NCBI GenBank assembly: GCA_963766775.1
Contig: CAVYBP010000003.1
Coordinates: 27,759 to 91,758, forward strand
Source of the DNA: an uncultured Phycisphaerales bacterium
GTDB taxonomy: Bacteria; Planctomycetota; Phycisphaerae; WQYP01
DNA length: 64,000 nucleotides
Direction: 5' to 3'
A program made the position numbers and the translations under genes. Below are positions 24,847 through 30,432 of the stretch, in pieces (position 1 is the first letter of the stretch; each line of letters opens with the position of its first letter). The notes under the pieces were generated by a model. The model was not told the DNA's origin. It saw only the letters and a program-made list of their open reading frames with translations, and made no database searches.

Positions 24847-24863
24847 GCCATAGACCGGCCATA
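24847..24863. repeat. 17-bp direct repeat GCCATAGACCGGCCATA (left copy) flanking the OLD/UvrD/HExxH cassette
   Basis: Exact match to 30416-30432. At the right copy the 11-mer GCCATAGACCG is itself tandemly repeated. Confidence 0.7.
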
Positions 24864-24968
24864 TTCTCGCACAGACGCCCGAATCAGATCGACACTTCAT
24901 TTCTTTTGGTCGGGACGTTCGGCGGAATCCGATTGCGCCCATAAATTGTGGATAATCGCTGCCACGCT

Positions 24969-25913
24969 TCAACAATTGAAGTAAAGGCCGACGCCTTTCG
25001 GTGTCATCGCGAACTTGAATTCCATCGCCAAACACAAGTCGGACCAAAGATCCGGCATGTCGTCAAACGTCTCATCGTTCCACTGGGGATATTGCTGCCA
25101 TTCGCTTTGGATCATTTCGTCGAGACGGGTTAAGACTTCCGATATGGCTTCCGGGACACTTAACGGCAGGGACGGTAGGTCGCGGCCAATTGCCATGGCG
25201 GTCGCATAGACCTTGGCAAATTGTAGTAGCACCACCCAATACCCGTGAGCAACGTGATAGGCGAGACTGCCGAGGTCCAACCGGTCTTCACAATACGCCT
25301 GCTTGTCTTCATTTAGTTGTGTTATCAGGTCCTTTGCCGTCTCACATGCCTTTGTCCAATGCCATTCAAGTTGCTCTTGCGCCATGTACTCGGCAGAAAA
25401 CACACACGCTGCGACTTCACTCATAAGAATGTTCATATAATATCGGGCAAAGTGCTCAAGGTTCATTTTTCCAGATGGTGGTCCGACGCGTGGTTGTTTT
25501 GACCGAAGAGAATGGTCCAAACAATGTCCAAGTTCGTGGGCAATCATGTACGCGGCGATCTCTCGCGGAAAATCGACATGCAACTGGCCAGCGTCAACCG
25601 CGAGAAGTGAAATCAAAACCAGATCGCGTAGGATTATGACGTTACTCGTTCCAGTCTCAGTCTGTAAGGGAATCGTCTTTCCAAGTGCAATATGAAACGC
25701 AGTTTGGGTGTGCGTTACTCCGCCTGGCTCCGCCCTCCCGTGGGCAGCAATGGACGGTCCGAAGCTCGCTTCATCCGCCACTAGGACTTTTTGAAGCGCG
25801 CCGTCTGGCAATTCGATGGATTTGGCAATGCTATCGACAAAATTTCCTAGTGCCTCTCGGCACTCTTCGATATGTTCCGGTGCGAGCTCTGGTAGGCTAA
25901 ATTCAATCTTCAT
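24969..25913 (-). CDS. HExxH-motif protein (putative zinc metallopeptidase-like), third gene of the OLD/UvrD cassette
   Basis: A 314-aa intact ORF that starts 63 nt downstream of the helicase stop on the same strand. It has the motif MIAHELGHCLDH and no other motif I recognise. Confidence 0.5.
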   Translation of the reverse strand: MKIEFSLPELAPEHIEECREALGNFVDSIAKSIELPDGALQKVLVADEASFGPSIAAHGRAEPGGVTHTQTAFHIALGKTIPLQTETGTSNVIILRDLVLISLLAVDAGQLHVDFPREIAAYMIAHELGHCLDHSLRSKQPRVGPPSGKMNLEHFARYYMNILMSEVAACVFSAEYMAQEQLEWHWTKACETAKDLITQLNEDKQAYCEDRLDLGSLAYHVAHGYWVVLLQFAKVYATAMAIGRDLPSLPLSVPEAISEVLTRLDEMIQSEWQQYPQWNDETFDDMPDLWSDLCLAMEFKFAMTPKGVGLYFNC

Positions 25914-25976
25914 GTCCGCACCAGTGAGTCATGGGAATACGATTTAAAATTGATGTCTAGCGTTTCGGTCCTGGCG

Positions 25977-27878: not shown

Positions 27879-30198
27879 GCAGCCACCCCTGCAGCCGCCG
27901 TAGTTGAAATCGCTTTTGAATCATCGGATTGCCGCTTGGTCAATTGAGCTTCCAACCATACCAAACCTTCGCGAATGTATCTCGGGACTTTCAAATCGTT
28001 TGGTTCTTTCAGCCACAGAAGGTCGAGAGCGAACGTTGCCTTGTCCAGGTCCTTTAAAATCTCAAATAGGGCCTTGCTGAGATCGGTCGGGTCGGTTGCC
28101 GCTTTTGCTGCATTGATGAACAGGGTCATGCCATCATGGTCAGGAAGCGTGCGAAAGAGCTGTAAATTTTCGAAGACTAAGGCATCTTCAAACGTCGTAG
28201 AAAGTGCTTCTACCTCGCCGGTAGCGGCCGACATCTTCACTATAACAGGCACTTGATACGCTACGCGGACTGAAAACAGAGGCATAGCGGGATATGTTTT
28301 AACTTTGTCGGCTGCCTTAACGTCCAGCAAGTCATCAATGGGTTGCAGTACCGGATGCCATGTTTTCAACGTCGAGTTTCGTGTGATTTGGTTCTGCTTT
28401 CGCGCGGGCGGAACAGCCTTGTGATGGCCAGCGCCTTCGACGGAGTCAAGATCGGTGATGATCAGCGTAATTAGACCAAGGTGTTCAATCAGGGCGCGCA
28501 GCCGGTGTGCATGACTGCCGCCAATTTCGAGTAGCGTGACATAGCAGCAATGAAGCTTATCAAACTGTTTCCTTATAAAGTGAGGGACGAGCATGCGTTC
28601 TGCGGGGCCTTCAACGAGAATTGCCGCATCGGCAAAAAAAGATCGCAGTGAGTTGCGCGGAGGTAGCGTGTCACAAACCGCTTTGTCTCATCATCTGTAC
28701 CAAAAACTTCAGTAAGATTGATGACCGCTGACGTTGGTACTTGGCCTGGCGCCGCCGCCGGTAAGCGACGGAAATATCGTAGCCAAGAGAATTCACATTC
28801 ATGTGCGATATGACTTGAATGAGTGCTGACAATCAATTGCGTCATCAGTGCCTTACTCTCGCCAAGGTCTTTGTGATTGCGAAGCACGCCATAAGCTTTT
28901 CTCAGAAACACCTGTTGCACCTGCGCGTGCAGATAAGCTTCCGGTTCTTCTACTAATACCAGATGTATTCGAGGCATCGTTTGCTCTGCCGCTTCGGATG
29001 CCATGAGCTTTCCCGCTTTGCCAACCTGCATCCACGCGTCACGAAAGCTCATAAGTCGGAACACCATCGAAATAAGATTTTGGTATCCAAGCCCGTTGTA
29101 TTCCTCAGGCAGGGTGAGTGGCGGCGCGGTGTCACCCACCATGGGTTCAACAACGTCGTATTGAACGGCTGCATTGTGATTTAAGCCATCGCTTGGACGG
29201 AGACGCGTCGCAATTTTCAGTCGCGGGTCGGTAACGCCGGGGTAGTTGAGGTTTTCCAATTCCTTTATTGCTGTGGCGAAACCGCTCGCTAGACGACCGT
29301 CGTATGCTTGCTGCGCCGTTTCAATCGATTGGAGCGCGTCGAGATCGGTTGGCTCCGGAAATGACGAGGGATCAAGATGCTTTGTGTAGTAGTTTCTGAG
29401 CTGTTCTGACAATTTTTTCTTATCCCGAGGCGTGATTCTGTTCCCCTGATCCTCATCCGGCCCAGAGCCTGTAGAATCGCCTAGTCCTCGCTGCGCAGAA
29501 ATCTCGTCGATACGGATTAATCCCTTAAGCGGGTTACTGTCGAGGGCCGGGCTTTCAGTTGGTATGGGTTGCAGGTTTGCAACACCATGCGAAGGCGGAA
29601 CGCACTTGGCAGGGTTCAACAAGTAATAGCGAAGTTCAAAACTCTTCGTCAATCGTCTATCTAGGAACGACCGCATGTTTTGCGGCCAGAGCGTCAGAGT
29701 ATGTTTCTGATCCGTCTTTCCATCTTTTACGCTTGCCTCTTTGGTGTCATTTGCAGCCTTTATGGCCGCAAGATATTCCCTTGCTAACTGCTCAATGTCC
29801 TTTGGTTCGTACCGCAGGCGGACGCCTATTTTCCCGCCAGCCCACTCCAGCGAGGGGATCAAATCTTTAACGTGATGTATTTCACCGGTACCCACATCAA
29901 GCCAAAGGTCCAATGTAGGGAGTACCGACTCCCACGCGGGCAAAAGCTCAATCAGATTACTTTTCGGTGGCTTCGCCTCCCAATCACCACCGATCTTGTT
30001 GATCGCCGTCCAGTCCGAGAGTGTGAAATCGTTCGTCGTGAATTTTGTGGGGTTAACGAGAAAGTGACTAAGCGCTAACATGGCGGACGTTTTCCCGCTG
30101 TTGTTCGCGCCTACGCAGAGCGTTGTTTCACTGCTGAAATCAATGCGGACAGATTTCAACTTACGGAAATTTTGAATTTCGACAAACAGGATTTTCAT
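27875..30198 (-). CDS. OLD-family ATP-dependent nuclease (ABC-type ATPase + Toprim; GajA-like), split by a frameshift in the A7 run 28634-28640
   Basis: MKILFVEIQNFRKLKSV, Walker A GANNSGKTS, Walker B/D-loop HLVLVEEPEAYLHAQ. After a 1-nt correction the sequence reads ATHCDLFFADAAILVEGPAERMLVPHF (Toprim Glu), then LITLIITDLDS (DxD). A GGAGGGG RBS lies 7 nt before the ATG at 30198. Confidence 0.85.
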
Positions 30199-30415
30199 TT
30201 CCCCTCCAAAGGACAATCAGGCCTTAGGTGTATACGTCCGACCCCGCCCAGATCCTGCGCGGGGTTTTCGTGATCCGGGGGGAAATCGTCTCCTGCACAA
30301 GGACGCCGCCCGGTCCGATGCCGCATGTCATGGCCTTCGATTTTGTTGTTTGGCACGAATTTGCTCACATTCTACGTCGCGTGAAAGATTTTTGTAAGAG
30401 AAATTAATGGCTGTG

Positions 30416-30432
30416 AGCCATAGACCGGCCAT
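30416..30432. repeat. 17-bp direct repeat GCCATAGACCGGCCATA (right copy)
   Basis: Exact match to 24847-24863. Confidence 0.7.

Follow-up and report, generated by a model that had tools for sequence, protein, structure and literature searches.

The 64,000-nt stretch of DNA analyzed here, from an uncultured Phycisphaerales bacterium (assembly GCA_963766775.1, contig CAVYBP010000003.1) and referred to throughout as the window, contains a 5.55-kb segment with three co-oriented genes, all on the minus strand. On sequence grounds the first two, gajA and gajB, are an ordinary two-gene Gabija system of a catalogued long subtype, and the third, gene 3, is probably an independent passenger and not a dedicated Gabija subunit. 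An earlier, sequence-only reading of this DNA had described the same compact unit: an OLD nuclease gene of about 774 aa after one A7 correction, a 633-aa helicase whose start overlaps the nuclease stop at ATGA, and a 314-aa HExxH gene 63 nt further on, lying in a block of lower GC content than its flanks and in a setting rich in insertion sequence (IS) elements, introns and a serine recombinase. Each part of that description is reproduced here, with the nuclease frame restored by adding one T and the HExxH motif being HELGH at residues 126–130.

The account that we consider probable as a whole—an acquired two-gene Gabija accompanied by a passenger gene—runs as follows. The segment, with its canonical gajA–gajB operon, would have been acquired horizontally, and the 17-bp direct repeats at its ends would be the traces of one insertion or recombination event, located between an IS66-family element and a group II intron and carried out by an enzyme that the segment presumably does not encode. 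On the model of the Bacillus cereus system, GajA and GajB may form a hetero-oligomer in which the nuclease would be restrained by cellular nucleotides and would cut DNA during phage infection. One T appears to have been lost from an inferred T8 tract in gajA, which would leave the locus either recently inactivated or mis-sequenced. Gene 3 would be an independent passenger belonging to a rare zincin-like (HExxHxxD...E) family whose members are found singly in variable, conflict- or transposon-rich neighborhoods.

Identity of the gajA and gajB Genes

Profile searches place both products in Gabija over nearly their full lengths. The repaired gajA product matches the PADLOC GajA model PDLC00093 (residues 1–761 of 774 against model positions 1–730 of 736; expectation value, E, 2e-286), and the gajB product matches the GajB model PDLC00111 (residues 8–630 of 633 against positions 5–624 of 625; E 2e-252). 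Pfam assigns AAA_15 (1–465; E 1e-44) and OLD-like_TOPRIM (521–585; E 1e-17) to the repaired GajA, and UvrD-helicase, AAA_19 and UvrD_C to GajB. When GajA is aligned to its B. cereus counterpart (BcGajA), the Walker A, Walker B, H-loop, Toprim VEG..E and DxD motifs are all conserved (as GANNSGKT, LVLVEEPE..LH, STHS, ILVEGPAE and ITDLD), and the AlphaFold model of GajB (predicted local distance difference test score, pLDDT, 80.8) matches UvrD, Rep and PcrA in Foldseek searches (E 1e-16 to 1e-18). The PADLOC, Pfam and motif evidence thus bears out the class 2 OLD/Gabija assignment that had been made from the letters of the sequence.

The arrangement of the genes is equally typical. As in the catalogued Gabija systems to which the two models (PDLC00093/PDLC00111) belong, an ABC ATPase plus Toprim nuclease is followed by a translationally coupled superfamily 1 (SF1) helicase, the ATG of gajB overlapping the TGA of gajA as ATGA, and Gabija relatives have the identical two-gene architecture. 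Two features set the present locus apart from them: gajA is frameshifted, and the third co-oriented gene after gajB is unique to this locus. In the literature Gabija consists of GajA and GajB only (PMC10568477, PMC10781630). The two Gabija genes are not both intact, gajA being split as sequenced.

The sequence-only reading had also found both proteins unusually long. This is true against the prototype from B. cereus VD045 (GajA, 578 aa; GajB, ~494 aa; PDB 8SM3, 8U7I, 8JQ9), which has the same domain order and catalytic motifs but a GajA shorter by ~200 aa and a GajB shorter by ~140 aa than those encoded here. It is not true within the catalogued subtype, where these lengths are normal: GajA open reading frames (ORFs) in related loci run to ~730–820 aa and thousands of helicase homologues to 620–645 aa. 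Since the PADLOC models (736 and 625 positions) and the homologues are equally long, the extra length is best taken as a trait of the subtype. The long Gabija subtype spans Planctomycetota, Proteobacteria, Bacteroidota, Bacillota, Verrucomicrobiota and one Methanoperedens archaeon.

Relationship of Gene 3 to Gabija

The genomic contexts of Gabija and of gene 3, examined from both directions, argue that the two are separate. When 185,579 species-representative genomes were scanned with a GajB alignment, 80 loci at 39–58% identity were obtained, distributed over many phyla. A GajA-like ORF is present in 79 of them, lying within ~100 nt of the gajB start in 75 and most often with the same 4-nt overlap. 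No ORF of the gene 3 family occurs in any of the 80 (family profile hidden Markov model, HMM; E ≤ 1e-3). The profile recovers the window's own gene, as positive control, at 3e-91; its best value in the 80 loci, with filters off, is 0.025. Approximately 69 of the 80 carry more than 1.1 kb of sequence downstream. In about half, no co-oriented ORF follows gajB within 300 nt; where downstream ORFs are present they are mutually unrelated and none encodes HExxH, and across these 80 loci the long subtype shows no recurrent third gene, whatever its kind. From the opposite direction, nine exact-protein look-ups of gene 3 family members gave eight independent contexts besides the present one; neither GajA nor GajB occurs in any of the eight, nor is any neighbor family common to them. 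These patterns do not bear out the proposal, made from the sequence-only reading, of a three-component variant or a new OLD-based defence type. By its profile scores the pair is ordinary two-gene Gabija, and synteny with the HExxH gene is absent from the related genomes, an outcome which that reading had named in advance as contrary to its own proposal.

Several observations weigh against the account preferred here. At the level of the pair itself, GajA aligns to BcGajA with an E of only 7e-7 over ~180 residues (409–588), a sequence search of GajB against BcGajB gave no match, and the GajB model lies nearer to full-length UvrD/Rep/PcrA (E ~1e-18) than to BcGajB (8sm3_B; E 3e-10, rank 41 in the fold search). 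The closest database relative of gajB is ~61% identical; the synteny comparison thus covers no near relatives, and very recent co-evolution at this one locus may have escaped it. The segment has neither terminal inverted repeats nor an internal recombinase that would account for its insertion. Finally, gene 3 is co-oriented with gajAB, begins 63 nt past gajB and shares the composition of the pair, and no predicted terminator was found in the 63-nt spacer. With no terminator-like site in that spacer, gene 3 is probably co-transcribed with gajAB, and a functional link peculiar to this locus may exist.

This last set of features is also what a three-component Gabija would predict, i.e., one in which GajAB has the HExxH protein as a functional third subunit or as a regulator: a shared strand, a short gap lacking a terminator-like site, common GC content and third-position GC content (GC3), and residence in one repeat-bounded segment. 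Set against the family's absence from all 80 GajAB loci, the absence of GajA or GajB from all eight other family contexts, the lack of a recurrent third gene in the subtype and the lack of a PADLOC match to gene 3, we regard a third Gabija component as very improbable. As for the distance from the prototype, the 4:4 GajA–GajB complex, nucleotide-regulated DNA cleavage and phage protection are known only for BcGajAB (PMC10781630, PMC8136825); as the subtype is remote from that tested prototype, any mechanism proposed for the present pair is extrapolated.

The Protein Family of Gene 3

Gene 3 appears to be under selection. An exhaustive HMMER search among 1.84 billion representatives found 172 representative clusters (at 50% identity) of its family, 97 of them at E ≤ 1e-10, nearly all of whose members are full-length at 300–340 aa. 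A k-mer-indexed homologue search returned gene 3 itself only and, with the family profile, three proteins. Across 61 sequences H126, E127, H130, D133 and W226 are invariant, and R137, E166 (≥90%), A169, K234, Y275 and P276 are near-invariant. The AlphaFold model built on the family alignment is confident (pLDDT 93.6; predicted template modeling score, pTM, 0.92): the N-terminal part is a mixed sheet followed by a long helix (117–136) that carries HExxHxxD, the next helix (152–172) carries E166 within an SE(F/V)AAC motif, and the C-terminal part is a helical bundle followed by a hairpin. From general knowledge of the clan, we take this layout to be the zincin/gluzincin plan. The invariant HExxHxxD, the near-invariant E166 and the confident fold together indicate that gene 3 is under selection and probably encodes an enzyme.

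Its resemblance to described peptidases is faint. With zincin/gluzincin peptidases such as M61, M34, IrrE/ImmA (M78)-like and SprT-like proteins it shares an HExxH on a long helix, and E166 on the following helix is a candidate third metal ligand; unlike them, its C-terminal half is a helical bundle and not a GAF-like domain, and neither sequence nor fold searches matched it significantly to any described peptidase family. Fold matches in the PDB are weak (M61 aminopeptidase and YbeY; best Foldseek E 0.07), as are those in BFVD (putative phage peptidases, M34, IrrE-like, M61 and SprT-like proteins; best E 3e-3), with template modeling (TM) scores of ~0.25–0.31. Pfam, NCBIfam, PADLOC and PHROG models gave no match to gene 3 or, consistently, to 61 relatives. 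Searches of plasmid and phage collections (tblastn; three relatives were also run against plasmids) found no relatives, IMG/VR contained none (profile from an 11-sequence subset), and metagenomes yielded one short contig. Gene 3 itself occurs in a sole other assembly, on a 1.65-kb contig of Logan ERR11571141. The ten family members that were looked up fall in one- or two-member clusters, all but one known only from metagenome-derived assemblies, and are named “hypothetical protein” at best.

Two more specific identities were considered and rejected. HExxH metallopeptidase-like genes adjoin defence operons in the CapP/CapH and ImmA/ImmR modules, as gene 3 does here; unlike those modules, gene 3 has no helix-turn-helix (HTH) partner, for which the segment has no room, and no M78 match (one family member reaches E 0.027 against capP, which is noise). 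Gad1, the 35-kDa phage anti-Gabija protein, resembles gene 3 in size and in its association with Gabija, but there is no profile match and no fold match to the Gad1-containing PDB entries, and the phage collections searched contain no member of the family.

The contexts in which the family occurs are varied. One member accompanies a Lamassu-like LmuB_C/MC3/CTD7 operon and a transposase; others are found with a PIN-like gene, SIR2_2 and a GTPase-centered GAP1-N1/DO-GTPase/GASH conflict system, with ThsB_TIR, TIR_2 and a phage integrase, or with a Fic protein; the remaining contexts hold hypothetical genes, transposases or short contigs only. While the sample is too small for statistics, this suggests that the family rides in variable, conflict-rich regions. 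In one lineage (L090, 8814–10954; L091, 3070–5210) a ThsB_TIR-like gene (142 aa), co-oriented with the homologue of gene 3, and an unannotated gene of 199 aa precede that homologue, with a TIR_2 gene and a phage-integrase fragment nearby; this may be a small operon.

Such neighborhoods raise the possibility that gene 3 stands on its own as a conflict gene (a single-gene defence, or a toxin-processing or regulatory metalloprotease) and Gabija a mere neighbor. The Lamassu-like, PIN-like, SIR2_2, GTPase-system, TIR and Fic genes would fit this, as would the invariant HExxHxxD, the confident fold and the lack of family members in PHROGs and in collections of phages and plasmids. Nevertheless, only ~9 contexts are available, several of them with merely hypothetical genes or on short contigs; they show no conserved partner and provide no enrichment statistic, and variable regions hold many non-defence genes. 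We consider a self-standing conflict role unlikely, though deserving of some weight. A bolder version, in which gene 3 founds an undescribed cytoplasmic zincin-like family (HExxHxxD...SE[FV]AAC), its clusters nearly all of metagenomic origin, that is itself a part of defence islands—either a protease that acts against phages alone, or an accessory that moves about and settles beside unrelated systems—is speculative and, in our view, quite unlikely.

The gajA Frameshift

As sequenced, gajA consists of two overlapping ORFs (30216..28573 and 28594..27875) with products of 541 and 239 aa, and the public assembly's own gene calls are these exact two fragments. A single T added to the T7 tract at which the frames part fuses them into a 774-aa protein reading ...THCDLFFADAAILVEGPAE..., and the repair restores DLFFADAAILVEG, the L-F-F of which is encoded by the inferred T8. 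Among 51 homologous GajA genes there is almost no variation in the peptide D-L-F-F-A-D-A-x-I-L-V-E-G, and their T-run at the D-L-F-F block varies from 2 to 7 through the use of synonymous codons. From this near-invariant peptide, the ancestral sequence here was GAT CTT TTT TTT GCC (T8), from which one T has been lost. The 239 codons 3′ of the frameshift are open, hold no further lesion and keep all of the conserved motifs; as the downstream frame is thus open and conserved, the lesion is either a mutation of very recent date or an error in sequencing the homopolymer, two possibilities that we rate as roughly equal.

If the mutation is real, the system may be a dead relic, non-functional in this strain. 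Specifically, the assembly encodes two fragments, an intact 774-aa GajA is absent from ~15 billion public proteins, and the region looks to be decaying, its recombinase lying in five pieces with breaks off long homopolymers and its IS66 element being interrupted; the long housekeeping ORFs in the window are intact, moreover, which argues against a generally error-ridden assembly. On the other hand, the change is a lone base in a homopolymer, a classic site of sequencing error, and the 239 lesion-free downstream codons with their motifs mean that, if real, it would be very recent; in addition, slippage on T7 during transcription or translation could yield some full-length product. That the system is dead in this strain is therefore close to an even proposition.

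A programmed frameshift, either −1 ribosomal at U_UUU_UUG or through a phase-variable tract, is extremely improbable. The zero-frame U UUU UUG is formally an X XXY YYZ heptamer, and a 6-bp hairpin (TTGCCG-ATG-CGGCAA; 28621–28641, minus strand) starts within or next to it. Yet homologues encode GajA as a single ORF, the range of their T-runs leaves no conserved slippery site, and the hairpin overlaps the heptamer instead of lying 5–9 nt downstream. We judge the presence of heptamer and hairpin at the frameshift site to be coincidental.

Boundaries and Probable Acquisition of the Segment

The segment is compositionally distinct. GC content is 0.503 in the 5,553 bp between the repeats vs. 0.600 and 0.564 in the 5-kb flanks, and the three genes are near-equal in GC (49–51%) and GC3 (54–56%). 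No further co-oriented ORF lies inside the segment, whose ends are non-coding stretches of 105 and 218 nt. In the 5′ untranslated/promoter region of gajA, the opposite strand carries a GC-rich hairpin with a T-run after it (CCCCGC...GCGGGGTTTT; ~30243–30272, plus strand).

Exact copies of the 17-mer GCCATAGACCGGCCATA bound the segment, as the sequence-only reading had noted; the left copy lies where it had been placed, and the right copy is at 30417–30433 and not 30416–30432. The 17-mer is built from a tandemly repeated 11-mer, GCCATAGACCG. In a survey of 55 kb, i.e., the window minus the paralogous repeat region 1–9000, the pair is the sole non-tandem exact 17-mer repeat besides one inside a repeated coding motif. 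Shuffles give an expectation of 0.09 matches to the 17-mer at ≤3 mismatches, and one copy with 3 mismatches lies at 51795. Comparison of the two junctions found no homology between them beyond 17 bp.

Low GC content and direct repeats fit a horizontal acquisition of the segment, and the position of the 17-mers at compositional boundaries fits one discrete acquisition. The same features are silent on any functional link between gene 3 and Gabija. A circular intermediate might have integrated at a specific site or through short homology, or the repeats might represent a target duplication of unusual length; the predicted empty site would read ...GTTGTCCGCC-GCCATAGACCGGCCATA-GACCGAAAACATTTTG... 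A transposon or integrative element was considered for the segment and rejected: direct repeats are present, but no terminal inverted repeats were found at the inner segment ends, and PADLOC, Pfam and NCBIfam profile scans detected no recombinase among the three genes.

The 17-mer pair might instead be a dispersed genomic repeat or a coincidence, and not the scar of an insertion. Its tandem 11-mer structure and the 3-mismatch copy would accord with this, and only 64 kb of the genome was examined. Yet few matches are expected in shuffled sequence, the pair is the only such repeat in the surveyed 55 kb apart from the coding motif, the repeats coincide with the GC step and their shared homology ends at 17 bp, which together make a chance or dispersed origin improbable. 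We retain the reading of the repeats as marks of a single insertion.

Flanking Mobile Elements and the Wider Window

The segment lies among mobile elements (Table 1). The group II intron that interrupts tnpC of the left-flank IS66 element is delimited by Rfam matches to D1–D4 (22978–23097) and domain V (21289–21351), and the ORF at 20392–21987 fuses RVT_1/GIIM with DDE_Tnp_IS66. The ends of the IS66 element could not be placed, as there is no second copy in the window, there are no inverted repeats and plasmid matches are only weak. Left of the element lie a gene for IS21 IstB and a fragment of a DDE transposase.

On the right, the 3′ end of a second group II intron lies 53 nt past the repeat. 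This intron seems to be inserted just after a terminator hairpin, a class C-like behavior, and contains a perfect 26-bp tandem duplication at 30956–31007. Beyond it, a fragment resembling a tRNA 3′ end, GGTTCAAATCCTGTCGCCCCGA, precedes a 14-bp tandem duplication (TCGCCCCGATTGGA x2), the two together occupying 31224–31264 on the minus strand; the window holds no intact tRNA gene, and the fragment resembles what an old att site of an integrative element might leave behind. The large serine recombinase that follows is broken at places other than long homopolymers and is thus probably a true pseudogene.

Table 1. Features of the segment and its flanks, with positions counted from the first letter of the window.
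Feature	Positions	Strand	Remarks
gajA, class 2 OLD nuclease (ABC ATPase + Toprim)	27875..30198	-	774 aa after repair; start at 30198, MKILFVEIQNFRKL...
A7 homopolymer (T7 on coding strand), frameshift site in gajA	28634..28640	-	
gajB, SF1 UvrD/Rep/PcrA-like helicase	25977..27878	-	633 aa
Gene 3, zincin-like protein	24969..25913	-	314 aa; HELGH 126-130, D133, E166
Sigma-70-like promoter match	30369..30398	-	Upstream of gajA, inside the segment; consensus match only
Left copy of exact 17-bp direct repeat GCCATAGACCGGCCATA	24847..24863	.	
Right copy of 17-bp direct repeat GCCATAGACCGGCCATA	30417..30433	.	Extends to two full 11-mers, GCCATAGACCGGCCATAGACCG
Left-flank IS66-family element (tnpA-like ORF, tnpB, tnpC)	20392..24596	-	tnpC interrupted by group II intron (21289-23097)
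Right-flank group II intron, apparently ORF-less, ~0.7 kb	30492..31105 (5′ end probably near 31190)	-	Rfam D5/D6 30492-30564, D1-D4 30771-31105
Large serine recombinase (Resolvase + Recombinase domains), five overlapping ORFs	31392..33915	-	

PADLOC detected no other known defence system among ten neighboring ORFs, and housekeeping genes resume beyond ~36 kb. Elsewhere in the window, three large paralogous ORFs (784, 849 and 758 aa; 40–8688, plus strand) share 300-nt blocks at 84–97% identity and contain a 46-nt repeat ~10 times, encoding a ...NADGTLNTSFG-like motif. Adjacent 1042-aa and 440-aa ORFs with an overlapping 228-aa ORF lie beside the IS cluster (11680–16593, minus strand); the first two have no Pfam or PADLOC match and the third no PADLOC match.

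Implications for Gabija and for the Gene 3 Family

For Gabija these findings carry little weight: the locus is one more, possibly inactivated, member of a subtype that existing tools recognize, and it does not represent a new OLD-based architecture. The modestly novel element is gene 3's unannotated zincin-like family only. Gene 3 flags a small, confidently folding, unannotated HExxH family in conflict-gene neighborhoods, which we offer as a lead and not as a finding. The long Gabija subtype itself is widespread, occurring in phyla from Planctomycetota to Bacteroidota and in an archaeon, yet it is remote from the sole biochemically studied prototype, and as its helicase looks like a full-length UvrD, the extrapolated mechanism merits a direct test.

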